Shown here in pieces: positions 1,593 to 50,769 of a stretch of DNA of 64,000 nt. Position numbers and translations under genes: made by a program. The notes under the pieces are model-generated. The model saw only the letters and a program-made list of their open reading frames with translations. It ran no database searches and was not told the DNA's origin. The first letter of the stretch is position 1. Each line of letters opens with the position of its first letter. The stretch is from a virus. The DNA lies in IMG/VR virus record IMGVR_UViG_3300035665_000004, positions 57,947 to 121,946 of that record, one strand, 5' to 3'.

Positions 1593-2492
1593 ATGAGAAA
1601 AAAATTACACAAACATACATCACATGATACCGAATTGATTCCTCAAAATATTTTTCCAAAACAAAAGAATGTCTACGTTGGTGAGGACCAAGATAGAAAT
1701 ATAGCGATTGTACTAATATATGGTGTTATTGATGAACCCGATGAGTATGTTGATGAACTATTAAAATTAAACTGTTTATCATCAAAATATGATGTTGTTG
1801 AAGTCACGTTAAATTCACCTGGTGGTAGTTTAAATACAACTGTTGATATGCTTTCAACAATTAATAAATTTGAGGTTGTTATTACTATTGGTAAAGGTGA
1901 GGTTGCATCTGCGGCATTTATGTTATGGGCAAGTGGTGATATTAGAGTAGTTACAGATTATTCAATGTACATGGCTCATAGAGAATCGTATGGTATGTAT
2001 GGAAAAACATCCGAACATAGAGATGCTGCTCAAACATTTGGTAAAGTGTATGAGGAGCTATTTGAGGAATGTTTTGGTGATTTATTAAATGATAAGGAAA
2101 AACTTATTGCTGAAAGATCTGAAACTTGGCTATCTTATAAAGATCTATTAGAAAGAGATAGAGTTATTAGTTATGATAAATATGTTGTTCCTACAAATCT
2201 TTATTCTGTTGTTGAATTGTTTGTTACCGATTCTGGTTCAATATTTATGAAGGACCCTGATTCGGATTCATTCAGAAGTGTAACTCTACAATATGGTGAC
2301 GAAGCTCTCGAAAATATGACCAACTATCTTTATGGTATTGCACCAATAACTAAAATGCCAACTGAGGTACCTACAACAAAACCTAAAGCGAATATATCTT
2401 CAAGATTGAAAAACAAAAATGTAAAATCTACCGATGATACGACATCGACAAACAAAAAACCAAAAAATAAAACTGGAGAAAACAATGAGTGA
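1593..2492 (+). CDS. clpP: ClpP-like serine protease (S14 family)
   Basis: Motifs LNSPGGS, GEVASAA (catalytic Ser), YMAHR (His) and ETWL (acidic triad position). Lys-rich C-terminal tail. Confidence 0.8.
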   Translation: MRKKLHKHTSHDTELIPQNIFPKQKNVYVGEDQDRNIAIVLIYGVIDEPDEYVDELLKLNCLSSKYDVVEVTLNSPGGSLNTTVDMLSTINKFEVVITIGKGEVASAAFMLWASGDIRVVTDYSMYMAHRESYGMYGKTSEHRDAAQTFGKVYEELFEECFGDLLNDKEKLIAERSETWLSYKDLLERDRVISYDKYVVPTNLYSVVELFVTDSGSIFMKDPDSDSFRSVTLQYGDEALENMTNYLYGIAPITKMPTEVPTTKPKANISSRLKNKNVKSTDDTTSTNKKPKNKTGENNE

Positions 2493-3360
2493 TTTATCTG
2501 AATTAGAAATCGAAAGAGCATTAGAAATAGCAAATATACACAAAGAGGGTAATAATATTACTCTGACTGATATTGACCATTATATAAAAAATGCTATAAG
2601 TGTTGAATTTAAATCTAAATTCCCAAATGACAATTTTGATGTATCGTGGCATACCTACAAAGCTATTGGTTGTTTCCCAGCATTGGGAAATGCCTATGAT
2701 ATTGGTATTTCAATTGATAAACCAACTCATTATCTAATGCGATTAGTTGCTACCTGGCATATTGAAAAAGCATTGAAAGCATTAAAATTTGACACCGATA
2801 ACGATCCAAATTTATTAAGTGAACCGGAATTTGCAAACATTGGTACTGCAGGTAGAATTGCGAAAATTTGGGCTGGTAGTAGTTTAGATCCAGAAAATAT
2901 TAGAGAATATGGTGATGGTAGATGGGTAAAACCACCAAGATTAGCAACTTTCCCTGCAAAAGATGCAGATCGTGGAAGACCAGTTACAGTAGTTATTAAT
3001 AATCCAGGTATTGGTAGTGTATGTTCACATCACTTTTTACCATACAGCATACAAAATTCTGAGAACAGCAAAATTGTTATTTCTTATATTCCCAACAAAA
3101 AATTATTGGGATTATCAAAAATTGGTAGATTTGTAGAATGGTGTTTAAATAGACCTTCTTTACAAGAAGAAGCGACTGAATTAATCTTTAAAAAAATTAA
3201 AGAAATTGCCGAAACAGATGATGTTTATGTTGGGTTGATTGAGTTAGAGCATAGCTGTGAGACCACACGAGGTAGCAAACAACATAGCACAACCACTACT
3301 GAGGATTATAGTGGTGCGTATAATGATATTACATATCGAAATTCGATTCTTAAATACTAG
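2485..3360 (+). CDS. folE: GTP cyclohydrolase I (FolE type)
   Basis: Motifs SVCSHHFLPY, LLGLSKIGRFVEW...RPSLQE and HSCETTRG (Zn ligands C-H-C). Start moved to ATG 2485 (GGAG RBS at 2475-2478), overlapping the clpP stop. Confidence 0.85.
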   Translation: MSDLSELEIERALEIANIHKEGNNITLTDIDHYIKNAISVEFKSKFPNDNFDVSWHTYKAIGCFPALGNAYDIGISIDKPTHYLMRLVATWHIEKALKALKFDTDNDPNLLSEPEFANIGTAGRIAKIWAGSSLDPENIREYGDGRWVKPPRLATFPAKDADRGRPVTVVINNPGIGSVCSHHFLPYSIQNSENSKIVISYIPNKKLLGLSKIGRFVEWCLNRPSLQEEATELIFKKIKEIAETDDVYVGLIELEHSCETTRGSKQHSTTTTEDYSGAYNDITYRNSILKY

Positions 3361-3367
3361 TTTGTCG

Positions 3368-3398
3368 ACCACATCATATAATTCATATATGATGTGGT
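3368..3398. terminator. Perfect 13-bp hairpin after folE (terminator or mRNA-stabilising stem)
   Basis: ACCACATCATATA-attca-TATATGATGTGGT, followed by an A-run. Confidence 0.5.
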
Positions 3399-3421
3399 TA
3401 AAAAAATAAAGGTATCAAAAC

Positions 3422-3934
3422 ATGCAATACAATGAAAAATTATCGAATGAAAAATTAGGTGCATTTCAACAAGTTTCATCTGGTTATGATATTGGCAATT
3501 TATCAACACAAAACAAATCATTTATAAAATCAAAAACTAAAAATCCATTATCGTTCAAAATTAAAGATATTGAAACTGTTGGTAACTCCAGTGAAATATT
3601 AAAAGTTTTATTTTCTAATGGATTAGTAGCAAGGATAATTAAATTCACAGATAAAGAAAATCGTGCCTCATCATCATTCGATATAGTTGATGAATTAAAA
3701 AAAGAAATCTTAGTCAATACCGATAAATCATTTACTGGTGGTACTGGTATAGCAGAATCATTATTCAAAATAAATTTTATATCTCAATGGGAGGTGCCAA
3801 TATTTACAAAACTGTGTCGGGGTTTTATTTTAGGTGATCCAGAATCAATAAAAAAACTTATGTTTGACTACAACTTAAAAATAACAGAAGATACCGAATG
3901 GAAAATAAAAGAAATCATTGGAGTTAGCAAATGA
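3422..3934 (+). CDS. Hypothetical protein
   Basis: 170-aa ORF with an AAGGT RBS and an ATGA overlap with the next gene. Confidence 0.75.
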   Translation: MQYNEKLSNEKLGAFQQVSSGYDIGNLSTQNKSFIKSKTKNPLSFKIKDIETVGNSSEILKVLFSNGLVARIIKFTDKENRASSSFDIVDELKKEILVNTDKSFTGGTGIAESLFKINFISQWEVPIFTKLCRGFILGDPESIKKLMFDYNLKITEDTEWKIKEIIGVSK

Positions 3935-4653
3935 AATATGCCCCCTATTCTTTCTCCAAGATTCAAACCTTTTTTGAATGTCAGAAAAAATTTGAATACA
4001 CTTACGTTAATAAAATACCAATCGATTATGATTATGTTGACCCAATATACTTTAAAAGAGGTAGATTTTTACACGCCTATATAGCAGATAGATTAAATGG
4101 TGGTGATGGGCTAACTATAAGTCGACACAATATTGATATTGGTGAAAAACTAAAATTAGTAGAATTTGCAGATGTAACATTAAACAATGAATATATCAGT
4201 CTAACTTATGATTTTAATACCAATAAGGTTGAATCATTCGTTGCACTAGATCACGAATTAAAACCATCAAATAAAAAAAATAAATCGGCATTAAGTGGGT
4301 ATATTGATTATTATGCTGTTCATGATGATTATGGAATGATTGTAGATTGGAAATCAGGAAAATATCATAGTACCCCACACTACTTTCAACTCGAACTATA
4401 TGCGATTTGGATCTTCCAAAAATACCCAGAGGTAACAGAATTAGATTTAGTGTTTTATTATGTTGAGCATAATAAATTTCAAGTCAAAACAATAAATCCC
4501 AATGATGTTTTTGAATTAAAAACCACCCTTTCTGCAAAAATAACTATCATTGAAAATACAAACACCTTTGAGGTAAACAAATCAAAAAAATGTACATCCT
4601 GTCAATTTTTTAATGTGTGTAATTCTGAATTTGGTGTTGTTGGTGATATTTAA
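3931..4653 (+). CDS. Solo Cas4-like / RecB-family PD-(D/E)XK exonuclease with Fe-S cysteines
   Basis: Motifs SFSKIQTFFEC, G.ID...DWKSG and QLELYA. C-terminal CTSCQFFNVC gives the 1+3 Cys staple arrangement. Confidence 0.8.
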   Translation: MKYAPYSFSKIQTFFECQKKFEYTYVNKIPIDYDYVDPIYFKRGRFLHAYIADRLNGGDGLTISRHNIDIGEKLKLVEFADVTLNNEYISLTYDFNTNKVESFVALDHELKPSNKKNKSALSGYIDYYAVHDDYGMIVDWKSGKYHSTPHYFQLELYAIWIFQKYPEVTELDLVFYYVEHNKFQVKTINPNDVFELKTTLSAKITIIENTNTFEVNKSKKCTSCQFFNVCNSEFGVVGDI

Positions 4654-4664
4654 AAAAATGTATT

Positions 4665-4694
4665 TTTAAATCCTATATAATCATAGGATTTAAA
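4665..4694. terminator. Bidirectional terminator between convergent genes
   Basis: TTTAAATCCTAT / ATAGGATTTAAA inverted repeat. Confidence 0.65.
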
Positions 4695-4704
4695 TACGAA
4701 AATA

Positions 4705-5145
4705 TTATGTGATAGTTTTATAACCACCACCACTTTTATTAATACTACTATAAACTGAACCAATGTCAGTAGATATAGGTTTAGTTGCCACAGATTCGTT
4801 AGATGTATTCTGCTCGTTCATAATTTGAATAAGTGCTTTCTTTATAGCTTCCTCATATATAAAATTTGATACTTGACCAGCAATGTTTGCGTAAGGTTTA
4901 TTATTTTTCATAATCACCATTGCTGGAACGGTACTCATCAAAAAATACTGTGCCAATTTACCTGTTTCCTCATCTATTGCACAGGTATATATGTCAATTT
5001 TTCCACAAAATTTTTCATCAAAATTATCAAACATCTTGAAAATATTTTCTAAATTTGGGAGTTTATTAGAATAAAATAAAATCATAAATGTTCGACCATT
5101 AAATAAAACATCATCGATAATATCATCGGTTATCTTAGCAATCAT
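4705..5145 (-). CDS. Thioredoxin-fold protein lacking CXXC
   Basis: Trx-like spacing (MILFY...IDIYTCAID..GKLAQYF.MSTVPAMVIMKN.K...IAG), but SNKLP occupies the WCGPC position. Confidence 0.6.
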   Translation of the reverse strand: MIAKITDDIIDDVLFNGRTFMILFYSNKLPNLENIFKMFDNFDEKFCGKIDIYTCAIDEETGKLAQYFLMSTVPAMVIMKNNKPYANIAGQVSNFIYEEAIKKALIQIMNEQNTSNESVATKPISTDIGSVYSSINKSGGGYKTIT

Positions 5146-5487
5146 ATTTTTTCTCCTTGGTATTATTAATCTACAGGATTATACAAAAAATATTTCTTAG
5201 TAATCTTTGAATTTTGTAGTTAAAGAATAAGATTTACTAGAATATGATAGTGGTGTTAAAACTATATATTAATAAGGTGTTTTTTTGCACATATTCCAAC
5301 AAAATTTATTTCATATGTATATTCGTATATTATTATCAAATCTGAATTTAATTTTGGTTTTTGTTATTGCTGAAAGCAATTATTCCTCAGAGGCTCCTCT
5401 TTAATATTCTTTAATATCTATTCTTTAGGAAAATATTTTTCATTTTTATGCTATATTAATAAAGTGTTTTAACTGGCAAGATGTGAA

Positions 5488-5606
5488 AAATCCATTTTAG
5501 TTTTGGTTGTGGTGGGAAAAAATCAATTTTAGTTTTGGTTGTTTTGACATGAAATCCATTTTAGTTTTGGTTGTGGTGGGAAAAAATCAATTTTAGTTTT
5601 GGTTGT
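5488..5606 (+). repeat. Iteron array: 4 x 23 bp at an exact 32-bp period (putative plasmid-type origin)
   Basis: AAATC(C/A)ATTTTAGTTTTGGTTGT starts at 5488, 5520, 5552 and 5584 with 9-bp spacers. It has AT-rich flanks and lies just upstream of the Rep_3 gene. Confidence 0.85.
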
Positions 5607-5643
5607 TTGCTAATTGAAACAAATTTTGCAAGTATATTCAAAA

Positions 5644-5672
5644 TTGATAAAAAACAATTTTTTTTATATAAT
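5644..5672 (+). promoter_or_regulatory. Sigma70-type promoter of rep
   Basis: TTGATA (5644-5649), 17-bp spacer, TATAAT (5667-5672). Confidence 0.7.
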
Positions 5673-5716
5673 AAAAATGTATAATATGATTATGAAATAA
5701 TCTTTGAGGTAAAAAA

Positions 5717-6913
5717 ATGAAAACTCCCGATAAAATAAATACGGATCGGTATGAAGTAAACAAACCATCAGAACTGTGTCAAGTAATATTCATCAAGAAT
5801 TTTAAAAATGATTTTGAAATTTACAAAATTAGTCCTATGCAATTGGATCTAATAAATGGTATAATTTATAAGGTTCGGGAAATCATAATTAAGGAAAATT
5901 TAAACATCGATGATGAAATTCCATCTACATTATTCGACATAAAACTAAATGATTTTGCAAATATGTTTTCCGCTTATACTAATAACGACTATAAGGTTTT
6001 ACTTGAAAAACTTATAGAATTGTCAGAAATGAAAATTATTATAAATGCCCTAGGTAAAAATAAAGATATTGATGAAACAATCATGACTAGGTTTATTCAT
6101 GAGATACGACTATCAAAACATAAACATCAAAAAAACCAAAGAATTAGAGTTGCGATTTCTAATATTATAATTAACAGGTTTATTAACGTAAAAAAATATT
6201 TTTCCAAAATGTTTTTTACAATCCAATTTTCGATGGTATCAAAATACTCAAAGTTATTATATGAATTATTGAAAGATTATGAAAATATTAAAAAAATAGA
6301 ATTGACTGTAAATTCATTGCATGATTTACTAAATGTTGTTGAACCAAACCAACGCAAATGGACATTATTTAATCAAAATATTTTGAAAAAAGCTGTCAAT
6401 GAAATCAATGAAAAAGCAGATATTAAAGTTTTTTACGAACCTATTAAAGAAAGACCATCATCAACTGAAAGATTGCAGGTAACAAAAGTTAAATTTGTTA
6501 TCGAGAAACAAACGGAGTCAAGACTACAATCACTAGGGTTAATTCATGAATCGATAAAATCCAATAAGTTCTATAATAAGTCGAAAAATAAATTAGACAA
6601 ATTATTGAAAACTGGGTACAAACTAATCGATGAAGAAAAATGGATTGAAACCGACATCAAAAACAATGCTGTCCGATATGATGCTGAAATAAGAATTGAT
6701 AACTGGTTGAAAAATACACCACAAGATGATAAAAATAACATATATGCAATGCTTGCAAAAACACTTGATGATTGTGACGAACAATTTATTTATATTGATG
6801 GATATTTAATTAGAGGAGTTTTTTCGAATGATTCATATACTAGAAACCCAATGGAAACTATTTCTGTAATGAATGAGTTGATCAACCAAATTTCTTCAAA
6901 CTCAACCAATTAA
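5717..6913 (+). CDS. Plasmid replication initiator, Rep_3 (RepA/RepB) family
   Basis: SKYSKLLYELLKDY, TVNSLHDLL, F.QNILKKAVNEINEKADIKV and VTKVKFVI follow the Rep_3 second winged-helix pattern. Iterons lie immediately upstream. Confidence 0.85.
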   Translation: MKTPDKINTDRYEVNKPSELCQVIFIKNFKNDFEIYKISPMQLDLINGIIYKVREIIIKENLNIDDEIPSTLFDIKLNDFANMFSAYTNNDYKVLLEKLIELSEMKIIINALGKNKDIDETIMTRFIHEIRLSKHKHQKNQRIRVAISNIIINRFINVKKYFSKMFFTIQFSMVSKYSKLLYELLKDYENIKKIELTVNSLHDLLNVVEPNQRKWTLFNQNILKKAVNEINEKADIKVFYEPIKERPSSTERLQVTKVKFVIEKQTESRLQSLGLIHESIKSNKFYNKSKNKLDKLLKTGYKLIDEEKWIETDIKNNAVRYDAEIRIDNWLKNTPQDDKNNIYAMLAKTLDDCDEQFIYIDGYLIRGVFSNDSYTRNPMETISVMNELINQISSNSTN

Positions 6914-6969
6914 AATGAACTTCATTATTTTTTTGTAAAATTAATAAAAAAACATGGAATAATAATATT

Positions 6970-9483
6970 ATGCTAAAAAATCCAAATCCAAATCAAGAAG
7001 TGATTGATTTTTATAATTTACTCAAAACCAATCCAGACAAACAGTGGTATGAATACGAGGAATACAAATTTGTATTAATTGCAGAAAAACCTAGTCAAAT
7101 AAAAAGTTTAAGAGCCGTACTTCCTAAAGGGAAACATATCAAAATAATTTCTTTAGCAGGGCATATCATGAGATTAAAAAATTTTGAAGAGTACGATTTA
7201 TCTTTAAAAGATAAATCCTGGTACAAAATGGTAAAAGATGATAATCTACCATTCATACCCAATGAATTTGAATCAGTAGTAAAAGAAAAATCCACAGGTA
7301 AATTCAGAACAGATTACAATGAAATGTTTTTATCGTTGAAGCGTTCGACAAAAGAAGCAGATTTCATTATTTCGGTAGCAGATCCAGATAATGAAGGGTG
7401 TTCATTGATGTATCAACCAGTTGATTATGCTGGTAATAGTCAAAAAATTCTTGGTCAAATCAATATGTCGAAGTTAGATTTTTTCTCATTACAGGAAGAA
7501 ATTAAAACATTTGATACAATCGATTATTTTAGTATGGCACAAGCAGGTATTGCGAGAAGTGAGTTTGATTGGACTTTTGGATTAAACAATACCATATTAG
7601 CATCCGTTCTATTAGGTGGCGGTCAAACATATCATATCGGAGGTGTTAAATCACCAGTATTGAGAATGGTCTATGATAGAATCAAAAGTATTGAATCATT
7701 CAAACCTGAAAAATATTGTCAGTTTTTAGGTGAAGCAAAACATACAAAAACTGGAGTAGATTTTAAATACATTGTTAAAGTTAAACAAAATGATACCGAA
7801 ATTATCAACACTCAGGATAAAATTGATATATTGGAAATGAAGATAAATGGTATGGACAAAGAAAACCCAGAAATATTGGGTGAAATAGGTAATTTATATG
7901 TGGAATTGGGAAAATTGCGATGGAAACTCAACGAATTAATTAAAGATTATGAATCCTCGGAACGAGACATTTACAATAGAACTATACGTACCAAAATAGA
8001 AAATGTAATCAAAGATGGTATGAAATTTAAAATATCAAATTTTGAGACTAAAAAAGGGTTAACTCAAAATCCACCTTTGGCATACTCATTAACCGATTTA
8101 CAGGCTGAGGCTGGTAACAGTCATAATTTTACACCAGCCAAAACATTAGAAATCGCACAGAAACTTTATGAAGGTCAATGGCAGTCTTATCCTCGAACGG
8201 ATAACAGATATTATGCAACTGGTGAGATGGCAAATATAAAGAAAATAATTCCAAATTTATTGGGATTAACAACTTTTTCTAATGTTAAAATACCTGTACC
8301 TTATAAGGTTAATACGGGAGTATTCAACTCAGCAAAAATTTCTGCTCATACAGGGTTATCACCAACAACCAAGGAAATAAAAGATTCATCATTAACTGGC
8401 GAAATGAAAACTATATATGATATGGTTTCAACAAGGTATCTAATTCAATTTATGGACAAATTTGAATACTACCAGGTAAAGTTGGATGTTGATGTTGATG
8501 TTGACATTTATATCACTACACATCAAAATATAGAAGTTAAAAAAGGATGGCGAGAATTATATAATCCTGCAAATATGTATGGTTTCAATTATGTACAAAA
8601 ACAAACATTACCAAATATGTTAATTGGTGATGAAATTGAAATACTATCTATCACTCGTGAAGATTTACAAACAAAACCATCACCAATGTTTAACGATTTT
8701 TCATTGTTGAAAGGTATGGAAAATATTGGTCGAATTTATTCAGAATTGGAGGGATTAGAAAAAGGCATTGGTACACCGGCCACAAGAGCCAGTATCTTGG
8801 ATCAGTTATTTAAGGCAAAATATTTAATTAAGAAAGGAAAAATTGTTGATTTGAGTCCAAAAGCTAAAATGCTCATTAAATTATTACCAGATGAAATGAC
8901 ATCACCAAAATTAAGAGCTGATATGGAAGCAAAGTTAAATGATATTATTTCCAATAAAATAACCAAATTAGATTATGAAACTGAATTTAAAGAATTGATT
9001 TCTGACCAAACTAAATCTTTATATGAAATTTCAAAAAATAACAAAATAGAAGTCATTGATAAAGCAACATTACCACCTTCAGATGCCCAAATAAAATTTG
9101 CAAATCAAATCGCAAAAGAATTAAAATTATCCATACCTAAAGAGGCTTTAAAATTAAAAGACGAGATGATGCAGTGGTTGAAAAAAAATGAAAAAAATAT
9201 GCCTCAACTTTTAAGTGAAAAACAGTATTTATTCCTTAAAGAATATGGTAGTGACGATGAAAAAATTGTTTCGATCTTAGAGGCTCAAGATAATAGAACA
9301 ATGACAAAAGAACAAAAGTTTGAAGCAAGTAAATGGTTAGGTTCGTTCATCAGAACTAGCAAATATCAAAAATTACGTGCCGCAAAAGGAGCAGCTACTA
9401 AAAAAAGAAATAGAGAGGAAAAAATGAAATCTTTAGGTGTTGTTGTACCTGATGTAAAGTTGAAATCTTTAAAAAAGAAATAG
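6970..9483 (+). CDS. topB: Type IA DNA topoisomerase (topoisomerase III-like, plasmid type)
   Basis: Motifs IAEKPS, LAGHI, ADPDNEG, SYPRTDN (catalytic Tyr) and GIGTPATRASIL. C-terminal PPSDAQIKFA...I region. Confidence 0.85.
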   Translation: MLKNPNPNQEVIDFYNLLKTNPDKQWYEYEEYKFVLIAEKPSQIKSLRAVLPKGKHIKIISLAGHIMRLKNFEEYDLSLKDKSWYKMVKDDNLPFIPNEFESVVKEKSTGKFRTDYNEMFLSLKRSTKEADFIISVADPDNEGCSLMYQPVDYAGNSQKILGQINMSKLDFFSLQEEIKTFDTIDYFSMAQAGIARSEFDWTFGLNNTILASVLLGGGQTYHIGGVKSPVLRMVYDRIKSIESFKPEKYCQFLGEAKHTKTGVDFKYIVKVKQNDTEIINTQDKIDILEMKINGMDKENPEILGEIGNLYVELGKLRWKLNELIKDYESSERDIYNRTIRTKIENVIKDGMKFKISNFETKKGLTQNPPLAYSLTDLQAEAGNSHNFTPAKTLEIAQKLYEGQWQSYPRTDNRYYATGEMANIKKIIPNLLGLTTFSNVKIPVPYKVNTGVFNSAKISAHTGLSPTTKEIKDSSLTGEMKTIYDMVSTRYLIQFMDKFEYYQVKLDVDVDVDIYITTHQNIEVKKGWRELYNPANMYGFNYVQKQTLPNMLIGDEIEILSITREDLQTKPSPMFNDFSLLKGMENIGRIYSELEGLEKGIGTPATRASILDQLFKAKYLIKKGKIVDLSPKAKMLIKLLPDEMTSPKLRADMEAKLNDIISNKITKLDYETEFKELISDQTKSLYEISKNNKIEVIDKATLPPSDAQIKFANQIAKELKLSIPKEALKLKDEMMQWLKKNEKNMPQLLSEKQYLFLKEYGSDDEKIVSILEAQDNRTMTKEQKFEASKWLGSFIRTSKYQKLRAAKGAATKKRNREEKMKSLGVVVPDVKLKSLKKK

Positions 9484-9574
9484 ATGAAATAAGTTGATCT
9501 GAAAAAGAGAGGATTTAAAATTAATTTAAAAAAATAATATATTAATTAGACAATACAATCTATTAAAAATCAAA

Positions 9575-9605
9575 ATGGTGTGGAACAGAGATGTTTCCAC
9601 ACCAT
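9575..9605. terminator. Hairpin terminator between the convergent topoisomerase and tail genes
   Basis: ATGGTGTGGAAC / GTTTCCACACCAT inverted repeat. Confidence 0.55.
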
Positions 9606-9720
9606 ATCAATATAAAAAAATTCACATAACACAATCAATTTAGTTAATTCTTTAGTTTAAAAAATTTACATCACAAAATGAAAAATCTACAAATGTAAAC
9701 TCATAATTGATATTTGTGTA

Positions 9721-10800
9721 TCACGCAATGAAAGTTATTTTTATATACCCTTCATAATCATTAAATGTGCCGATATTGGATATATTTGAACCATTAAATA
9801 CGGTAGAATCATCAAACTTACCATCGCTAGTTGCAATGGAAGTGGCTGTATTAATTATAAATGAACCGCCACCAATACCTGAAAGATAAGAACCACCCAT
9901 ACTTGTTTGACCACCTAAACCGCCAGAATAACCTCCACCTCCGCCACCAGAGTTATTACCCGAATGTCCACCACCACCGCCACCAAAACCACCTTGTGCA
10001 GCATTAGTTGTCGAGTTTCCTCCGGTACAATAAAATGGTCCTGAAGCAGATGAAACAGCCCCACCAACAAATGCTGCCCCGTGTGTGTATTGTTGAGCTG
10101 ATGAATCAGTAGCCATTGCCGCAGAATTAGTATAACCTGGATAATCTTCACCACTACCAAACCAACCACCTCCGCCACCACCATGATAACCTCGACCACC
10201 ATAACTTAATGTTGGGTGTGTTCCAGATACCGATGGAGAATAATTGTATCCTGTAAACAATGGTTGTCTTCTAGTTTGACCATTTATATATTCTTGTGTA
10301 GTCATACTACTGTAAAATCCAGCACCACCACCAGCAACAATAATTGGTGTGTTTGTACCATAAAGACAAATAAATGAACCACCACCACCACCAGAATATG
10401 ATGTTCCAGGTGCAATCGAACCTGTATCACCAGGTACTTGACCAACAACCATTTCTAACTTATCAGTTGTAGTAAATGGTATTCTTGCTCTAATTATTGC
10501 ACCTTTACCATTAGTAGATGGCGTAGTATATTGGCCTCTTGCACCTGCGATTTCAATCTCATAAATTCCAGTTTTGGGAATTTGAAACACCTGATACCCC
10601 TGTGCTCTCCCTTGATAGAAATAATTGGTATTTGATGCCCATGTTTGACTACTATATGTGGATTGTAATTGTGCTAATGTTGGACCGTGTCTACCAACTT
10701 TTCCACCAGGCGTAAATGTATGAGTCGTAAACCCAGTATATAATGTTGCTCCACCACCTGAAGATGTATTACTTAAAAAAGATAAATTAATACCACTCAT
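9721..10800 (-). CDS. Glycine-rich tail-tip/adhesin-like protein
   Basis: IPKTGIYEIEIAGARG...GKGAIIRA...GGGGGSF...IVAGGGAG glycine-rich (ALK/LTK-type) domain; coupled to the upstream fibre gene. Confidence 0.6.
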   Translation of the reverse strand: MSGINLSFLSNTSSGGGATLYTGFTTHTFTPGGKVGRHGPTLAQLQSTYSSQTWASNTNYFYQGRAQGYQVFQIPKTGIYEIEIAGARGQYTTPSTNGKGAIIRARIPFTTTDKLEMVVGQVPGDTGSIAPGTSYSGGGGGSFICLYGTNTPIIVAGGGAGFYSSMTTQEYINGQTRRQPLFTGYNYSPSVSGTHPTLSYGGRGYHGGGGGGWFGSGEDYPGYTNSAAMATDSSAQQYTHGAAFVGGAVSSASGPFYCTGGNSTTNAAQGGFGGGGGGHSGNNSGGGGGGYSGGLGGQTSMGGSYLSGIGGGSFIINTATSIATSDGKFDDSTVFNGSNISNIGTFNDYEGYIKITFIA

Positions 10801-11666
10801 GACACATTACCTGTAATTATACCAGTATTTGCATTATAAAAAAGAACAGTACATAATCCGCGTGAAGCGAGTGTTAAAGATGTTTTTGTTGTATTTGAAC
10901 CAGCAACATATGTTGTGATTGCAGAACAGGTAATTGTTAATGTGCTGGCAGTATTATTAAATATTGTGATAATATCACCAGCAGCAAAAACATTTGCGGG
11001 TACTGTTATTGCCCCATTAGTTCCTAAACTTACAAATTTACCGATATCAGAGGTTGATAAAGTATATGATGATGTTTTATCTGTACCAGATAAAGGCATA
11101 TTTCTATATCCAATATCTACTAAATCAATTTTACAATTCACTAAATTACCTGAAACTGGCGTTCCAAGTGCAGGATTTGTTCCAAGTTTAGAATTAACAG
11201 TATTTGTCAATGACGTGATTGCAGCATTATTAGATGTTACATAACCTGCGAATGCATTATCATTAGTTGTATCAACTGAGTTAATCAAAGTAACAATTTC
11301 AGCAAATGAATCTTTATCAGCAGATGATGCTGATAAAATAGCATCAATTCTAGCTTTTTCACTTGCTAAGTTATTGGTTAATGTTGTATCCGCAGCTTGT
11401 CTAGCTAATACCTCATTAGTTAAATTAGTGGTTAATGTGTTATCAGCATTTGTTCTTGAAGTTGCTTCAGAAGCAAGATTATTAGTTAATGTTGTGATAG
11501 CTGTTTCTCTAGATGTAACCTCAGTATTAATCGCAGCTTGTCTAGCTGTTGCTTCATTAGAAATTGCAGCAGTTAAAGTAGTAACTGCTGCTTGTCTGGC
11601 TGTAGCTTCATTGGTAACTGCTGTAGAAACTACACTACCCATTTTTTTAAAAATTGAATCAGGCAT
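10797..11666 (-). CDS. Tail fibre-like protein, DSIFKKMG family (copy A)
   Basis: MPDSIFKKMG N-terminus, 18-aa EA.ARQAADTTLTNNL coiled-coil repeats and a C-terminal beta domain (TSSYTL...VPANVFAAGD). Confidence 0.65.
   Translation of the reverse strand: MPDSIFKKMGSVVSTAVTNEATARQAAVTTLTAAISNEATARQAAINTEVTSRETAITTLTNNLASEATSRTNADNTLTTNLTNEVLARQAADTTLTNNLASEKARIDAILSASSADKDSFAEIVTLINSVDTTNDNAFAGYVTSNNAAITSLTNTVNSKLGTNPALGTPVSGNLVNCKIDLVDIGYRNMPLSGTDKTSSYTLSTSDIGKFVSLGTNGAITVPANVFAAGDIITIFNNTASTLTITCSAITTYVAGSNTTKTSLTLASRGLCTVLFYNANTGIITGNVS
11251..11360. repeat. 110-bp dispersed repeat in fibre genes, copy 1
   Basis: By eye, 2 mismatches to 53898..54007 and 4 to 44861..44970. Encodes EKARIDAILSASSADKDSFAEIVTLINSVDTTNDNAF. 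Confidence 0.9.
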
Positions 11667-11737
11667 TTTTTATCTCCTTTTTTGGTTTGAAAGTATAAGT
11701 TGATGTTATTTATTTTTTACTAATAACACTAATTATA

Positions 11738-11779
11738 TTTATCACTCTTGCCACAAGACATCAACCTTTAGGTCGTGGA
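11738..11779 (+). mobile_element. Putative IS200/IS605 end remnant after TTTAT
   Basis: TTTAT|CACTCTTGCCACAAGACATCAACC-TTTA-GGTCGTGG. Shares GACATC and the TTTA-loop hairpin with 42410 and 52021. Confidence 0.4.
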
Positions 11780-11819
11780 TTCCTAACCAATTTTCAAAAA
11801 TACAATATTTTCCCAATAA

Positions 11820-12863
11820 TTATTTTTTTGCCGGATTTTTAATCGGTTCAATAATTTCTTTAGCATACCAACCTATTTGAAATTCTGTAGAATTTCTTTC
11901 TAATTGTTTAAGAGTGTTTTCACTACAATTCACAAAAATTGGGCAACCGTTATTTTTGTATGATTCAGTTAATTTACGTCTTGAGAGTTTATGTTTTTTG
12001 CAGAAATCATCAAAATTTCCATATGACGTACCAAACAAAGTACCATCCACACGGTAAACTGAAATCTTTTTAGAATTAGGGGAAACGTAAAAATCATAAG
12101 CATCAAACTCACGTTTGGTCACTACCTTATTTTTTCCATCTCTAATATCCAAAACAGTTACTCTATCCTCAGATACATGTTTAAAAAATTCATTTTGTTC
12201 ATATTCCATCTTAGAAACTAACTTGTATTTTTCAGCAATAACATCAAAAACTAAAACACACCCCTTATTTTGTCGAACATAATAATCGAATTCGTAAAAT
12301 TCTTTAGTTGTTACCTGAACTGTGGTTCCATTTCTAATATCAATAACAGAAACTTTTCCAGTAGCCGCAGTAATATATTGATCCGACGAATTATATTCAT
12401 TAACACTTATACTTTTGATAACGTTGTCTTTGGTATCAAAAACAGTAACGAACCCTTTTGTACAATGTTGGTAAAAATCAGTATTTTTTAATTCCTCTTT
12501 CACCACCAACTTTGTTAACCCAGTTCTCACATCAATAACTGGAACTAATCCTACAGTAGTGAAACCATTACTAATTGATTTAACTTTGTTATAATATTCG
12601 GTGTTTCTTGAAACATCATACAATTCGTGTAATCTTATTTCTTCATTGAGTGCATATTCTCTTGTTTCCCAAACTGATAATATTTCTTTTTTAAAATTTT
12701 CAATTCCACCAAATTTAATTGCATTCTTTAAAGGTGTAGAAGACCCCATATATTTCACATCTTTTTCTGGAGAAACTTTTGATGTTCTAACACCTATATA
12801 ATATTTTTGGTTATCGATAGGGACAGTATTAATTATTTTGTAAACATAATGATATTGTTTCAA
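11820..12863 (-). CDS. GIY-YIG (Seg-like) free-standing homing endonuclease
   Basis: YVYKIIN...YYIGVR...YMGSS...E...YYN catalytic domain followed by five 32-aa repeats. TTG start with a GGGAG RBS. Confidence 0.85.
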   Translation of the reverse strand: MKQYHYVYKIINTVPIDNQKYYIGVRTSKVSPEKDVKYMGSSTPLKNAIKFGGIENFKKEILSVWETREYALNEEIRLHELYDVSRNTEYYNKVKSISNGFTTVGLVPVIDVRTGLTKLVVKEELKNTDFYQHCTKGFVTVFDTKDNVIKSISVNEYNSSDQYITAATGKVSVIDIRNGTTVQVTTKEFYEFDYYVRQNKGCVLVFDVIAEKYKLVSKMEYEQNEFFKHVSEDRVTVLDIRDGKNKVVTKREFDAYDFYVSPNSKKISVYRVDGTLFGTSYGNFDDFCKKHKLSRRKLTESYKNNGCPIFVNCSENTLKQLERNSTEFQIGWYAKEIIEPIKNPAKK

Positions 12864-12901
12864 ATTTTCTCCCTGTGCTAAAAATTATTAATTTCCTAAC
12901 C

Positions 12902-12923
12902 ATTATACAAACTATTGTATAAT
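12902..12923. promoter_or_regulatory. Palindromic back-to-back TATAAT boxes between the endonuclease and PolB C-half
   Basis: ATTATACAA-acta-TTGTATAAT is a perfect inverted repeat that places a TATAAT on each strand. Confidence 0.5.
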
Positions 12924-12953
12924 ATAATATATTCTTATTAATTGGTAAAAAAT

Positions 12954-13073
12954 ATGTTGAAAAAAGTTAAAGTTAAATCGGTTAAAAAAATTGATTATTC
13001 TGGTAAAGTATATGATGTAGTTATGAAAAGTAACCCACATACATTTTTTGCAAATAATATTTTGGTACATAAT
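12954..13073 (+). other. Split intein C-fragment (40 aa)
   Basis: MLKKVKVKSVKKIDYSGKVYDVVMKSNPHTFFANNILVHN|S contains block F (VYD) and block G (HN), with +1 Ser. Confidence 0.9.
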
Positions 13074-14099
13074 TCCTGTTATTTCAGAGTAATGGAGGCA
13101 GAAAACTTAGAACAGGCAGAAAAAATAAGTAGAGAGGTAGTTGACGCCTGTGATAAAAAATCTATCCCATCAATAGTTACCAATATTTTTAATGGTAATG
13201 ACATTATGCGTAGTGATTTTGAAGCAATTTCTCGATCAACACTGTCGTATGGTAAGAAAAAACAATACGCATTTCTTAAAGCCTGGGAGGATGGAGAAAC
13301 CTTACCAACTCCAAAATTAAGCATCACTGGTTTATCAATTAAAAGAAGTGATTCACCAAAACAGTTATCTACTGAAATGAAACCATTCTTTACCGAAATT
13401 ATGAAAGGTTTAACAAAAGAACAGATAAAAATCGCAATGGATAAAATTGAAAAAGATTATGATGCTCTACCAACATATGAATTGGCAGCTAAACGTTCAG
13501 CGAATAACTTATCAAAATATTTAAGGGCATTTAACTATGAATTAGTTAAAAAGGATAGACCATACAACATCGAAAAATTAGATGAGGCAGTTGAAAACGC
13601 TTGTGATGGGCGAGTATCCATCGATGATAAAATTTATGATGATTTCATGAGAACAGGCAAAGGTGTTTATTCCATCGAAAATAATAAATTGGTTAAAGAT
13701 ATAAAAGGTGATTTAATCATAGAGGCAAAAGTTAAAATGGTTATTCCATTTCATATCAAAGCATCGATACTTTATAATTATTTGTTAGAATTATACGATT
13801 TAAATGATTTCAATCCAATTTTAGATGGTGAAAAAATAAAATTATTTTATATTCAACCACAAAAATTTAATATAAAATACACGGATCTAGATGGAAACAA
13901 ATATGATATGATACAAACTTTTGATTGTATTGCGTTCCCATCAAACTCAAAAAAAATACCAAATTTTATCAATACATTTACACCAGACAAAAAAAGAATG
14001 TTGGATACTTATTTCTTTGGTAAAATGGAAACAATTTTTGATGTTATCGATTTTAATAAAGAAAAATTAGAAAATATATCAATGGATTTATTGTTTTGA
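12954..14099 (+). CDS. DNA polymerase B (gp43-like) C-terminal half carrying a split-intein C fragment
   Basis: The 40-aa intein-C ends ILVHN and is followed by SCYF, the Ser of the (Y.DTD)S motif. KKKQYA and PKLSITGLSIKRSDSP are PolB palm/thumb motifs. ATG at 12954. Confidence 0.9.
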   Translation: MLKKVKVKSVKKIDYSGKVYDVVMKSNPHTFFANNILVHNSCYFRVMEAENLEQAEKISREVVDACDKKSIPSIVTNIFNGNDIMRSDFEAISRSTLSYGKKKQYAFLKAWEDGETLPTPKLSITGLSIKRSDSPKQLSTEMKPFFTEIMKGLTKEQIKIAMDKIEKDYDALPTYELAAKRSANNLSKYLRAFNYELVKKDRPYNIEKLDEAVENACDGRVSIDDKIYDDFMRTGKGVYSIENNKLVKDIKGDLIIEAKVKMVIPFHIKASILYNYLLELYDLNDFNPILDGEKIKLFYIQPQKFNIKYTDLDGNKYDMIQTFDCIAFPSNSKKIPNFINTFTPDKKRMLDTYFFGKMETIFDVIDFNKEKLENISMDLLF

Positions 14100-14208
14100 T
14101 AGAATAATGTCTACAAAAGTGAAAAAAATACTAATTAATCAACATTTTTGTAGTTTCTATTACAGGGGGCATAAATATATTCAATACCAACAATGATGAT
14201 TAATTATT

Positions 14209-16701
14209 ATGCCCACTAATATAAAAATTGATACCCTGACTATTGATATTTTGAATCATCTCAATATAATTGTGACCGACGCTAATAATAATATAACCTT
14301 TATTAGTGACAACTATTTAAATGCGTTGGAATATACTATCGATGAGGTTATTGGAAAAAATCCTATAATTTTTAGACATCCAACAATTAATAATCTACCA
14401 ATATTAAATTTTGTAAATAAAAATGGTGGACATTGGAACGGATTATTAAAAAATATTACAAAAAGTGGAAAAACTATATATTTCAATGCCGATATTTACA
14501 AAGATTATGATGAAAATGGTAATCATATTGGGTATCATTCAATACATACTGACATAACTACAACTATAACAAACCCCCATAAATTTATTTTTGATAATGA
14601 ACTTTTATCAATTATATTTTCAGAAAATATAGAATACCTAATCATCTGTTTGAGTGACGAGTTCGATGAAAATAAACACGAAATTATCAAGATTAGTCAC
14701 CCATTACTAGAATTGATAGGTATTGAAGCCGATAAATTAGTTGAGCAACACGCAAGTTTTGTAGATTTAATATCACCAAAGTCAATTTATTACAAAAATT
14801 TAAAACTGTTAATGCATGATCTTAACAATGAAAACCCATTACCGGTTGATATAAAAACGAAAAATAGGGATGCAAAATACAGAGTTTCATACACCCCTTT
14901 CAAATTCAATGATAAAGCAGCTCAATTATTTACGATGATTGACATAACCACCGAAATATCTTTTTCCGATCAACTCCAAAGTATAATAAAATCAAAAAAT
15001 GAATTTTTGGCAAATTTAGCCCACGAAATTAAAACTCCATTGAATGCAATTAATGGTTTTATTTCACTACTACAAATGCGTGAAACAAATAAAGAAAAAC
15101 TAGACTATATTGAATTAGTGTTGGAAAGTGTTAAACATGTAATAAACATTTCCAACGATACCATCGATTTTATTGGTATGGATAATAGTAAAATAGAGAT
15201 AAATCCTAGAGAATTTACACCAAAAGATATTCAGTCAACCATAGAAATATTTTTTGCAAAGAGTTTAGAAAAAAACATTGAATTGACTGCATATATTTCA
15301 CCACAATTACCAGAAATAATGTTTCAAGATATTTTGCGATTAAAACAAATCATAACCAATCTTATCAGTAATGCATTAAAATTCGTTAATGTTGATGGTA
15401 GAGGAACTATAGTGATAGAATGTCATTTCAACAATGACAAATTTTATTTTACTATTGTCGATAATGGAATTGGAATGTCCACAGAACAAATAGAAAATAT
15501 ATTTAATCCTTTTTATCAGGCATCAAAAGATACAAAAATGGTTTATGGTGGTACAGGGTTAGGATTGGCTGTTGTTAATCAAATAATTGAACTTATGGGT
15601 GGTAGTATTACTGTAGAAAGTGAACTCGGTGTAGGTTCAACATTTTCAGTTATTATACCAGTAAAATCAGTTAAAGAGTTTCAACATACAATTGGTCGAA
15701 TGGATATACCAAACATTTACATTTATGCCCCATCATTTTCCAATACAAAACATGAAATTTTAAAGAAATATCTGTTCGATTTTACAACCGCAAAGATCAA
15801 TAAAGTTGCAGAAATTGATACATTGAATTCAATAACGGATAGTGTGATACTACTTTATGTATGTGATACAGATATAAAAACTATACTCCAATTAAGTAAA
15901 ACAAATAGAATTATTGTAGTTAAAAAAATGGACATGGTTATCAACAATTTTACAAATTCGTCCGAAATAATAGAAATAAATTTACCCATTTTAGGATCAA
16001 AAATATATGATGCACTAAATTTACTAATATCCGGTAGAATGGAACAATTCTATAAAAATAACTTCTTAGATATGACAATATCTGGTAGAATATTGGTGGC
16101 AGATGATCAAGAATCGAATAGACTACTAATAAATCGATTATTATCATGTTATGATGTAACGATTGATGTAGTATGTGATGGTAGAGAGGCAGTTAATTAT
16201 TTTAAAAAGAGTATAATAGAAAACAAATCGTATTACGACTTAATATTGCTTGACGTCAACATGCCAATATTAAACGGCGTTGATGCCGCGAGAGAAATAA
16301 GACTTTTCGAAAAAATGAATAATATTACTAGAACTACAATAATATCATTAACAGCGGATAGATATACGGACAAAAATGATAGTAGATTGGTAGATATGGA
16401 TGAATATATACCCAAACCTATTAATTTAAAACGGATGTTATATCTAATTGTGAAATACACAACTGATCTAAAATTGGTTGATGAAAACTTGTTATACGAT
16501 GAAAAAATTAAAAAATTGAAAGAGATACGTGACGAATTTTTAAAACCAAATAATGAATTTAAAACAATGATAGACAATTATAAAAAACATTTTGATGGTT
16601 CGGAATTACCAATTATTGAAGGTTTAAAAGATTTAACTAATAAAAATGAATTCACTGCAAACTATAATAAAATTATGAAAATTTTTAGGAAGCACGGATG
16701 A
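14209..16701 (+). CDS. Hybrid sensor histidine kinase (Aer-type PAS - PAS-like - HisKA - HATPase - degenerate REC - REC)
   Basis: PAS: IFRHP...W.G..KN.TKSG. H-box: LAHEIKTPLNAI. N-box: NLISNALKF. G1: DNGIGM. G2: GGTGLGL. REC: VADD...LLDVNMP...LTA...PKP. Confidence 0.92.
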   Translation: MPTNIKIDTLTIDILNHLNIIVTDANNNITFISDNYLNALEYTIDEVIGKNPIIFRHPTINNLPILNFVNKNGGHWNGLLKNITKSGKTIYFNADIYKDYDENGNHIGYHSIHTDITTTITNPHKFIFDNELLSIIFSENIEYLIICLSDEFDENKHEIIKISHPLLELIGIEADKLVEQHASFVDLISPKSIYYKNLKLLMHDLNNENPLPVDIKTKNRDAKYRVSYTPFKFNDKAAQLFTMIDITTEISFSDQLQSIIKSKNEFLANLAHEIKTPLNAINGFISLLQMRETNKEKLDYIELVLESVKHVINISNDTIDFIGMDNSKIEINPREFTPKDIQSTIEIFFAKSLEKNIELTAYISPQLPEIMFQDILRLKQIITNLISNALKFVNVDGRGTIVIECHFNNDKFYFTIVDNGIGMSTEQIENIFNPFYQASKDTKMVYGGTGLGLAVVNQIIELMGGSITVESELGVGSTFSVIIPVKSVKEFQHTIGRMDIPNIYIYAPSFSNTKHEILKKYLFDFTTAKINKVAEIDTLNSITDSVILLYVCDTDIKTILQLSKTNRIIVVKKMDMVINNFTNSSEIIEINLPILGSKIYDALNLLISGRMEQFYKNNFLDMTISGRILVADDQESNRLLINRLLSCYDVTIDVVCDGREAVNYFKKSIIENKSYYDLILLDVNMPILNGVDAAREIRLFEKMNNITRTTIISLTADRYTDKNDSRLVDMDEYIPKPINLKRMLYLIVKYTTDLKLVDENLLYDEKIKKLKEIRDEFLKPNNEFKTMIDNYKKHFDGSELPIIEGLKDLTNKNEFTANYNKIMKIFRKHG

Positions 16702-44061: not shown

Positions 44062-44610
44062 TTACATAGTTCCAGTGATTACACACGCAAAATCAGCAAG
44101 TGTTGAATCAACTGTTACTGGTGAAACAATCGCAATAATATCACCGGCAACAAGTGTAATTTCTGGTGTAGAAATTGTTCCCGTTGTAGAACCAGAAGAA
44201 AATGTTACTGTTCCAACAACAGAACCATTTTTAGTAACCTTGAAAACTGTCGATAAGGTTGCTGAAATTCCAGATTTCATGTAACTACCATTCATATTAG
44301 CAGGGATAGTAACGTTGCGTGGAACAATCACTTTTACTAAAGTTTCACCAGATAATGGTTTACCGTTAACAAATTGTGCAATGTCAAATGGTAATGATGT
44401 TGGTGCACCACCACCAGTTCCAGAGGTAGATGCAACACCAATTTTTTCCCAAGCCCCTTTTGCATTCTTTTTATATTGTACACCATCATCTTTTTCAACA
44501 GTAGTATTAGTTGGTGCGTTTACAACATCACTAGCAACGGAAACAACATTATTATTTTTACTTGCATCACCAACATAGCTAGTGAACTTAAATTTACTTA
44601 AAACACCCAT
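44062..44610 (-). CDS. Tail adaptor-like protein (LSKFKF N-terminal module)
   Basis: The N-terminal 58 aa are paralogous to 50212..50769; the C-terminal beta domain is different. Confidence 0.55.
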   Translation of the reverse strand: MGVLSKFKFTSYVGDASKNNNVVSVASDVVNAPTNTTVEKDDGVQYKKNAKGAWEKIGVASTSGTGGGAPTSLPFDIAQFVNGKPLSGETLVKVIVPRNVTIPANMNGSYMKSGISATLSTVFKVTKNGSVVGTVTFSSGSTTGTISTPEITLVAGDIIAIVSPVTVDSTLADFACVITGTM

Positions 44611-44625
44611 ATCAATATACTCCTA

Positions 44626-45276
44626 TTAAATACCAAACCAAGTTAAAACATTACTATCATTAGTAGCCATATACAGTAAACCTGTGTCGGTATCTTTCCA
44701 TATTGAGCCATCGGTTGCAGACACTGGTGCATTTGCTTGTTGATAATATCTTATATAACCTGAACTAGAAACACCATCAAATAGAGTAGCATCAGCAGCT
44801 TTTTCAGTTTTACCCAATTTACCACTCACAGCGGCATCATTTGATAAAACATAACCAGCAAATGCATTATCATTAGTAGTATCAACTGAGTTAATCAAAG
44901 TAACGATTTCAGCAAATGAATCTTTATCAGCAGATGATGCAGATAAAATAGCATCAATTCTGGCTTTTTCTGTATTAACTGCGACTTTATACGCAGCATC
45001 TAAAGCAGAAATGGTATTTGTTAGAGTGGTATCAGCAGATTGTCTCGCAGATGTTTCCGCAGCTAAATTATTTGTTAGAGTGGTATCAGCAGATTGTCTC
45101 GCAGATGTTTCCGCAGCTAAATTATTTGTTAGAGTGGTATCAGCAGATTGTCTCGCAGATGTTTCCGCAGCTAAATTGTTGGACAATGTGGTATTTCCCG
45201 CCTGTCTAGCAGATGCTTCAGTCGCAACTGAAGCAGCAATAACACTACCCATTTTTTTAAAAATTGAATCGACCAT
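44626..45276 (-). CDS. Tail fibre-like protein, DSIFKKMG family (copy B)
   Basis: MVDSIFKKMG with 18-aa coiled-coil repeats. C-terminal IRY.QQANAP...DGSIWKDTDTG domain shared with 50802..51335. Confidence 0.65.
   Translation of the reverse strand: MVDSIFKKMGSVIAASVATEASARQAGNTTLSNNLAAETSARQSADTTLTNNLAAETSARQSADTTLTNNLAAETSARQSADTTLTNTISALDAAYKVAVNTEKARIDAILSASSADKDSFAEIVTLINSVDTTNDNAFAGYVLSNDAAVSGKLGKTEKAADATLFDGVSSSGYIRYYQQANAPVSATDGSIWKDTDTGLLYMATNDSNVLTWFGI
44861..44970. repeat. 110-bp dispersed repeat, copy 2
   Basis: About 96% identical by eye to 11251..11360, same orientation. Confidence 0.9.
45016..45177. repeat. Perfect 3 x 54-bp in-frame tandem repeat
   Basis: Units start at 45016, 45070 and 45124. 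Encodes NLAAETSARQSADTTLTN three times. Confidence 0.95.
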
Positions 45277-50211: not shown

Positions 50212-50769
50212 TTATTTAATTTGTTGTTTCAACTCATCGATTTGAGCTTGTTGACTTTTAACTACTTCAACTAACAATGCAGTTAATCTACCATAATTCA
50301 TACCTTCAACTTCACCTTCAGAGGTTTTATCAACAATTTCAGGTAATACTTTTTCAACTTCTTCAGCAATAAAACCAATATCTTTTTTACCACTTACTTT
50401 CCAATCATAAGAAACACCTTGTAACTGTGAAATCGTTTCAAAAGCATTCTGTAATGGCACAACATTCTCTTTAAATCTAATTGATGACGTTTCAACGAAA
50501 TCAGTCACAGTTAAAGTTCCATTGACTGTGACGTTACCAGTAATAGTCCCACCAGTAACTTTAAGGTACGTACTACCCAAATCAACTACCGCTGGTGGAA
50601 TTTTTTCCCAACTACCTTTAGTATTCTTTTTAAATTGTGTACCATCGTCTTTTTCAAAAATTGAATTTGTTGGTGCTGATGTTACAAGTGCTGGATTTGA
50701 AATAGTAGTATTATCTTTACTACTATCACCCACATATGTTTTGAATTTGAATTTACTTAAATAACCCAT
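50212..50769 (-). CDS. Short fibre/adaptor with a peptidase S74 intramolecular chaperone domain
   Basis: TSSIRFKENV...GVSYDWK...DIGFIAEEVEKVLPEIV...NYGRLTALLVEVVK plus a terminal coiled coil. The Ser and +5 Lys dyad is intact. Confidence 0.8.
   Translation of the reverse strand: MGYLSKFKFKTYVGDSSKDNTTISNPALVTSAPTNSIFEKDDGTQFKKNTKGSWEKIPPAVVDLGSTYLKVTGGTITGNVTVNGTLTVTDFVETSSIRFKENVVPLQNAFETISQLQGVSYDWKVSGKKDIGFIAEEVEKVLPEIVDKTSEGEVEGMNYGRLTALLVEVVKSQQAQIDELKQQIK

Follow-up and report, generated by a model that had tools for sequence, protein, structure and literature searches.

What a plasmid-type replication initiator and its binding repeats might do in the genome of a T4-like jumbo phage is the question raised by a locus in the window, i.e. 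the whole 64,000-nucleotide (nt) stretch of DNA analysed here, which forms the final 64 kb of the linear 121,946-bp IMG/VR record IMGVR_UViG_3300035665_000004 (hereafter G000) from lake water. In this DNA, which has a G+C content of 25%, 570 nt of non-coding sequence with four direct repeats (iterons) and a gene for a 398-amino-acid (aa) initiator of the Rep_3 family, termed Rep in the following, are located between a thioredoxin-like and a type IA topoisomerase gene. The explanation that we favour, with a probability of roughly 0.6, is that the locus is a portable, self-specific Rep_3/iteron origin which would start lytic replication and then hand over to the T4-type replisome of the phage. 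The initiation of copying in giant virulent phages with genomes of 200-300 kb is largely unmapped, and the Rep clade described below would provide a readable initiator-origin pair and a natural series of orthogonal Rep-iteron specificities, together with evidence of origins that are gained, lost and moved as 1.7-kb cassettes.

Anatomy of the Rep/iteron module

The rep gene is intact, and both Pfam domains of its product (PF01051/PF21205) were detected above their cut-offs, Rep3_N with an E value of 7.1e-10 and 39.9 bits (cut-off 22.4) and Rep3_C with 2.7e-9 and 37.6 bits (cut-off 21.1). Rep is composed of two winged-helix domains, WH1 (about residues 36-160) and WH2 (about 162-264), and a family-specific C-terminal domain (about 265-398). 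A profile built from 72 family members and compared with the PDB matched the pi protein of R6K (2nra, 2.1e-9) and RepE of F over residues 45-258. The AlphaFold (AF2) model of Rep has a predicted local distance difference test score (pLDDT) of 92.3 and a predicted template modelling score (pTM) of 0.79, and its best Foldseek matches (E 3e-12 to 5e-10) are 7sgc, 1rep and 8ac8, which represent RepE54 as a monomer on iteron DNA and RepE together with a single strand of the DNA unwinding element (DUE). On these structures the model reaches template modelling (TM) scores of 0.81-0.85, normalised by target, with a root-mean-square deviation of about 3 Å, compared with a TM score of only 0.42, normalised likewise, on the dimeric operator-bound RepE. 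The fold predicted for Rep, with high confidence, resembles RepE in its monomeric, iteron-bound state. The extra C-terminal domain of 135 aa (pLDDT 85.8) is conserved across the Rep family; it has no match in Pfam, and its Atlas scores stay below 0.9 with TM values below 0.5.

Upstream of rep, four 23-nt direct repeats follow one another at an exact period of 32 nt (5488-5606; start-to-start distances 32, 32 and 32), and the iterons are three helical turns apart, on one face of the DNA. The 18-nt iteron core, with up to three mismatches allowed, occurs four times in the 64-kb window compared with 0.43 occurrences expected, and none of 100 shuffled sequences reached four. The array is built from a 64-nt unit, present twice with 57 nt identical, and two slightly different iteron variants therefore alternate. 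A contig of the independent freshwater run X5 jumps 64 nt (5487 to 5552), leaving two iterons instead of four, which could be either a true two-iteron variant or an assembler collapse of the 57-nt identical repeat.

The putative rep promoter, with its hexamers TTGATA and TATAAT 17 nt apart, is the best sigma-70-like match within positions 4600-7100. Because promoter-like sites in this region are found at chance level (21 compared with 20.8 expected), it counts by its position and by the conserved -10-like stretch; a second TATAAT (5680-5685), which might serve as an alternative -10 hexamer, is located within the stretch that is conserved in relatives, and GAGG at 5706-5709 lies ahead of the rep ATG. 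The stretch at 5640-5700, which overlaps the promoter, has a duplex stability of -36.3 kcal per 40-mer (window mean -47.0, standard deviation 3.4, window maximum -35.8), and the region's second least stable duplex is found at 5400-5440 (-38.4 kcal per 40-mer). The original prediction, made from the DNA letters of the window, had named the intact Rep_3 gene, the four phased repeats, the TTGATA-17-TATAAT promoter and the AT-rich flanks of the iterons; all four are present, the last being borne out by the duplex-stability profile.

Further upstream, the non-coding part contains a T-rich block with three TTCTTTA repeats, two copies of a conserved 17-nt element and a small hairpin-forming 13-mer (Table 1). 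Since 5355-5480 folds as a single strand no better than shuffled sequences do (z -0.41) and 5100-5760 has no match in Rfam, the conserved block is not supported as a structured RNA. The 17-nt element was also considered as a terminator consisting of a hairpin and a T-run, and this was dropped because its left half is not complementary in several loci. DnaA boxes are not enriched (4 compared with 4.3 expected in 22 origin regions).

Distribution, conserved architecture and mobility of the cassette

Among 5.8 billion proteins, 107 homologues of Rep with 30-65% identity were found, many of them encoded on contigs of 170-306 kb, and a profile search among 1.84 billion representatives yielded 45 clusters (at 50% identity; E <= 1e-30), behind which a long tail of ordinary Rep_3 proteins ranks. 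Every relative with more than 30% identity originates from an uncultured virus or a metagenome contig, and in a maximum-likelihood tree the phage Reps form one clade (support of 98 in the Shimodaira-Hasegawa-like approximate likelihood ratio test, SH-aLRT), separate from the outgroups, which comprise plasmid-type and other Rep_3 proteins. Cultured phages (50,697 records) gave no match in BLAST searches at the DNA or protein level, even at E 1, and tblastn against 72,556 plasmids (PLSDB) gave no match to Rep. In 185,579 genomes of prokaryote species there is no relative above 30% identity, the best match being 29% identical over residues 80-248 and located on small Psychrobacter contigs of about 6-12 kb.

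The iterons were compared in about 25 related loci and the T-rich block in 21. In most of the former, direct repeats about 20-23 nt long are present in three to five copies, spaced by 30-32 nt, sometimes 22, and located about 90-250 nt before the Rep start. The sequence of the iterons differs in almost every locus, even where the Reps are 62% identical; the T-rich block is present in 20 of the 21 loci with at most two mismatches, regardless of the iteron sequence, at a position of about 265-335 nt before the Rep start, and is then followed by the 17-nt element. Both block and element are restricted to the Rep locus in G000, and in the related contig G001 their best matches are at both Rep loci; the closest matches of the 17-nt element in G001 flank both Rep genes, and the remaining matches listed have three mismatches. 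Sequence-specific binding of Rep proteins to one strand of a repeated DUE has been described for RepE and TrfA (PMC10602881), and the conserved T-rich block would fit such strand-specifically bound unwinding elements. A 3' core seems to be common to the iterons, with their 5' halves differing; this is a lead only, because the test used the sequences that had supplied the motif and is circular. Variability within Rep is highest in WH1 (residues 61-103, 2.3-3.0 bits) and lowest in WH2 (residues 167-264, 0.7-1.3 bits), and this combination of a variable WH1, a conserved WH2 and the iteron pattern is what would be expected if initiator and iterons co-evolve as pairs and recognition has two parts.

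G000 is collinear over about 60 genes with the 289,880-bp contig G002, in which the thioredoxin-like and topoisomerase IA genes are 75 nt apart with no Rep gene between them. Homology between the window and G002 breaks at about 5185 and resumes at about 6927, and the two arms of a palindrome that is intact in G002 (about 8 nt apart) are separated by 1.75 kb in the window. Judged from these alignments, the Rep/iteron unit is a discrete insert, a cassette that appears to move between jumbo-phage genomes. Three pairs of filled and empty sites between collinear genomes were found in total: in addition to the one described, the cassette of G002 (118,053-120,158), which is located at the main divergent strand switch, corresponds to a 195-nt spacer in G001, and a cassette of G001 (about 66.6-68.6 kb) corresponds to 85 nt in G002. 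A small palindrome similar to the conserved 17-nt element is retained at the empty site of G001 (44278-44473).

The number and the arrangement of the cassettes vary. G001 carries two full cassettes, which are 49.6% identical, belong to different subclades and have different iterons, G003 has one cassette and a divergent second Rep gene, and in G002 (119405-120158) the four iterons form two pairs with about 390 nt of very AT-rich DNA between them. The identity of the Reps does not track the kinship of the genomes: G000 and G002 share 61 of 167 open reading frames (ORFs) and their Reps are only 34% identical, and G000 shares 15 ORFs with G001 and 5 with G003, the Reps of both being 53-60% identical to that of G000. 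Several loci have no gene other than Rep on the Rep strand. An N-terminal nuclease-type domain (T5orf172/MUG113) is present in 5 of the 107 homologues, and at one locus (L034, 384-3241 of JACCDZ010224756.1) two Rep genes are arranged in tandem, the second being fused to an N-terminal T5orf172-type domain.

Positions 5150 and 9500 had been flagged earlier as places where a chimeric assembly should be looked for. Four other lake or freshwater runs, from different studies (2016-2024), yielded contigs with 0 differences from the window sequence; independent contigs span the gene border at 5146 (4723-5228 and 4975-5749), those at 6913/6970 (6357-7212) and that at 9483 (9358-9918). As all three gene borders are bridged in this way, a chimeric assembly is excluded.

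Role of the cassette and alternative explanations

According to the origin explanation, for which RepE, pi and TrfA serve as models, the rep promoter would drive early production of Rep, and Rep monomers would bind to the four iterons lying on one DNA face, the variable WH1 reading the variable 5' half of the iteron and the conserved WH2 the semi-conserved 3' core. The loaded array would melt an adjacent AT-rich element, for which there are two candidates, as the least stable duplex at 5640-5700 lies across the iterons from the T-rich block at 5397-5429; the latter might be held single-stranded by the conserved face of Rep (loop-back model). The family-specific C-terminal domain may recruit the helicase, and the T4-type replisome of the phage (PolB, clamp loader, ligase, topoisomerases) would then copy the genome during lytic infection. 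Several cassettes could coexist in one genome because each would have its private Rep-iteron specificity.

The closest counterparts of this arrangement are the iteron initiators of theta plasmids, such as RepE (mini-F), pi (R6K) and RepA (pPS10, pSC101), which share with the phage Rep the WH1-WH2 fold, predicted here, and with its locus the helically phased direct repeats beside rep, the adjacent AT-rich element and the promoter between iterons and gene. In contrast to them, the phage Rep, only 13-14% identical to RepE in structural alignment, has the extra conserved C-terminal domain; the iteron period is 32 nt rather than about 22 nt; DnaA boxes are at chance level, no inverted-repeat operator was seen in this copy and no partition genes were found; and the cassette resides in phage contigs of 120-306 kb which encode their own replisome. 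Within T4-type phages, oriE (repEA/repEB), the only origin of T4 to bear iterons, offers evenly spaced direct repeats, an early-type promoter and a position near a strand switch; its 12-nt iterons have an unsettled role and no initiator assigned to them (PMC3016281), whereas in the window a recognisable Rep_3 initiator is encoded beside the repeats. The origins oriE, oriF and oriG of T4 lie at divergent strand switches (PMC3016281), and the cassette of G002 has a similar location. Lambda O with ori-lambda and P1 RepA with oriR resemble the cassette in that a phage-encoded initiator is combined with a repeat array beside an AT-rich stretch, P1 RepA sharing the RepE-like arrangement (PMC10602881). 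They differ from it in that the lambda iterons are inside the O gene and O recruits the host DnaB through P, and in that oriR of P1 serves the maintenance of a plasmid prophage together with ParAB; no such partners were seen here. For firing in lytic infection a parallel is provided by RepA of PLE, a phage satellite of Vibrio cholerae: this plasmid-family initiator (RepA_N) with cognate iterons fires only during phage infection and uses the phage replication machinery (PMC7145576), but PLE is a chromosomal satellite that blocks its helper phage, whereas the Rep_3 protein described here is encoded inside a phage genome. In the literature searched, Rep_3/iteron origins are not described for T4-like or jumbo phages, and a comparative survey of jumbo phages makes no mention of such an origin.

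The original prediction had placed a plasmid-type replicon inside a T4-like jumbo phage and had proposed that the element may be a phage-plasmid. The first part of this claim stands: the Rep_3/iteron module is complete, it is a discrete insert, and G000 possesses T4-type replication genes, namely PolB parts, a clamp loader (phrog_168, 5e-67) and the topoisomerase II large subunit, which include the gp43- and gp39-like genes that had been named for the window. The gp23 capsid protein was not found in G000 (48% complete according to CheckV); it is present in T4-type form, at about 1e-80, in the relatives G001, G002 and G004, of which G002 is the one collinear with G000. The second part, namely maintenance of the genome by the Rep/iteron unit as an episome of low copy number during lysogeny or a carrier state, we regard as quite improbable. 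It draws on the completeness of the module and on Rep_3 with phased iterons being the canonical low-copy theta replicon. Handcuffing of iterons can limit copy number. The gene content of the phages and the distribution of the family argue against it. Partition, recombinase and repressor genes were searched for in five Rep-bearing contigs (G000-G004, about 1.1 Mb; G000 48% complete, the others 61-87%, three of them at 85-87%), with control genomes being positive in each search. ParA (PF13614, PF01656) and ParB (PF02195) are absent from these contigs, which are incomplete genomes and in which ParM and TubZ were not searched for; tyrosine or serine recombinases (integrase, resolvase) and S24 repressors were not found either, plain helix-turn-helix repressors lying outside the search. 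There is no relative above 30% identity in prokaryote genomes, among which phage-plasmids normally appear as extra contigs, and none in PLSDB; in addition, relatives have T4-type gp23 capsids, a genome may contain two cassettes, and cassettes are found at non-homologous sites. A plasmid prophage is therefore unsupported by positive evidence, as the partition, recombinase and S24 repressor genes were not found in these incomplete genomes and the family, whose hosts are uncultured, is absent from the host genomes and plasmid collections. The further suggestions of that prediction fared no better: a captured piece of a plasmid is contradicted by the restriction of the family to a single clade from uncultured viruses and metagenomes, with none in the plasmid collection; the search for parA, parB or a repressor that it had called for returned none of the ParA, ParB and S24 genes; and its premise that T4-like phages lack iteron origins was too strong, since T4 oriE has iterons (PMC3016281). 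A Rep_3 match in a viral contig is, taken alone, not to be read as a sign of a phage-plasmid or of plasmid contamination.

An explanation that is compatible with the origin explanation rather than exclusive of it is that of a selfish replicon cassette, a 1.74-kb unit which spreads among co-infecting jumbo phages with little or no benefit to the phage, either by over-replicating its own neighbourhood or by being carried by homing nucleases. The filled and empty sites between collinear genomes, the incongruence of the Rep tree with genome kinship, the loci in which Rep stands alone on its strand, the T5orf172/MUG113 domains in 5 of 107 homologues and the tandem Reps at one locus speak in its favour. 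Against it stand the retention of the full architecture and of the 135-aa extra domain over deep divergence (30-65% identity), which suggests a selected function, the presence of at least one copy in all five large contigs searched, and the lack of a nuclease gene within the cassette of the window; as the sole account we consider it unlikely. Still less probable, and to our judgement very much so, is that the winged-helix protein is a transcription regulator only, with the direct repeats as its operators and no role in replication. Rep_3 dimers are known as autorepressors and the repeats are situated directly upstream of the gene's own promoter, but the operators of Rep_3 proteins are inverted repeats, and the repeats found here, three to five in number, are direct, phased at whole helical turns and accompanied by a conserved AT-rich repeated block; moreover, the model fits the monomeric iteron-bound RepE far better (TM 0.81-0.85) than the dimeric operator-bound form (0.42).

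Several points weigh against the origin explanation itself. Binding of Rep, melting, helicase recruitment, timing and the use in replication are steps that we infer from analogy with RepE, pi and TrfA. G002, the closest large relative, has no cassette at the site of the window, so that a copy at this position can be dispensed with, and any benefit to the phage is hypothetical. In G001, neither Rep locus shows an origin signal in the GC skew or the strand profile, the skew tracking the strand of the genes. No inverted iteron, which could act as operator, is found near the promoter of the window at up to three mismatches, so that the usual autoregulation is not evident in this copy; the relative L002 has one inverted iteron copy between the promoter and the Rep start. 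For the C-terminal domain to which helicase recruitment is ascribed, the highest Z in the wide VIA-align search was 5.5, for helical bundles, which is not meaningful, and the CheckV completeness of G000 quoted above also has to be set on this side.

A more far-reaching proposal, which we offer tentatively and hold to be rather doubtful, is that lake jumbo phages trade orthogonal origin cassettes, each with a private initiator-iteron pair and a shared unwinding block, so that the number and placement of origins would be a trait that is mobile and open to selection, and the rapid iteron divergence would reflect competition, by incompatibility or origin theft, between co-infecting phages. If true, replication origins would be horizontally transferable in virulent phages, and a new initiator domain would link a plasmid-type initiator with a T4-type replisome.

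Features of the window and neighbouring genes

Table 1 Coordinates of the cassette, its elements and selected genes in the window
Feature	Position	Strand	Basis or remark
Whole Rep/iteron cassette, about 1.74 kb	5185-6927	+	Insert relative to collinear G002
Left 7-nt arm of split palindrome	5178-5184		Comparison with empty site of G002
Right 7-nt arm of split palindrome	6935-6941		Comparison with empty site of G002
17-nt conserved element, copy 1	5267-5283	+	
Hairpin-forming conserved 13-mer, small	5367-5379	+	Unique in G000; at both Rep loci of G001 and at L038
T-rich block, three TTCTTTA repeats	5397-5429	+	Candidate unwinding element or single-strand site
17-nt conserved element, copy 2	5454-5470	+	Between T-rich block and iterons
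Iteron 1	5488-5510	+	Repeat search
Iteron 2	5520-5542	+	Repeat search
Iteron 3	5552-5574	+	Repeat search
Iteron 4	5584-5606	+	Repeat search
Most easily melted stretch	5640-5700		Nearest-neighbour profile; overlaps rep promoter; alternative candidate unwinding element
Sigma-70-like rep promoter (putative)	5644-5672	+	11/12; TTGATA (5644-5649), 17 nt, TATAAT (5667-5672)
rep, Rep_3 initiator, 398 aa	5717-6913	+	Pfam, PDB profile, AF2 model, Foldseek
PD-(D/E)XK/Cas4-like exonuclease gene	3931-4653		Left of cassette
Thioredoxin-like gene	4705-5145	-	Left neighbour of cassette
Type IA topoisomerase, 837 aa	6970-9483		Topoisom_bac 9.5e-78 and Toprim
PolB part	12942-14099		Replication gene of phage
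Topoisomerase II large subunit	55924-57561		phrog_543, 6e-90

The genes on both sides of the cassette seem to belong to the phage. As the exonuclease and thioredoxin-like genes are syntenic in G002, they are not cargo of the cassette. The type IA topoisomerase is 67% identical to its counterpart in G002 and is also found in G004; it was considered as a part of the Rep module and rejected, since it is far from Rep in both of these genomes and abuts the thioredoxin-like gene in G002, and it is an independent gene of the phage, outside the Rep module. G000 also encodes an NAD ligase and long-tail-fibre-like proteins.

Upstream of the window, G000 contains about 14 kb (2153-16638) without an ORF of at least 150 aa in a simple ORF call. 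Several genes on the minus strand of the window (9721-10800, 10797-11666, 44626-45276, 50212-50769 and 52295-54172) have a domain in common and all match the same proteins of G001 and G002 with 40-66% identity, one of them also matching an ALK/LTK glycine-rich domain. Breaks and new joins in contigs of other samples around 9966-10400 suggest that these genes form a hypervariable or repeat-rich, fibre-like set. A gene for a GIY-YIG homing endonuclease similar to SegE (11820-12863) is located directly upstream of, and divergent from, the C-terminal piece of PolB.

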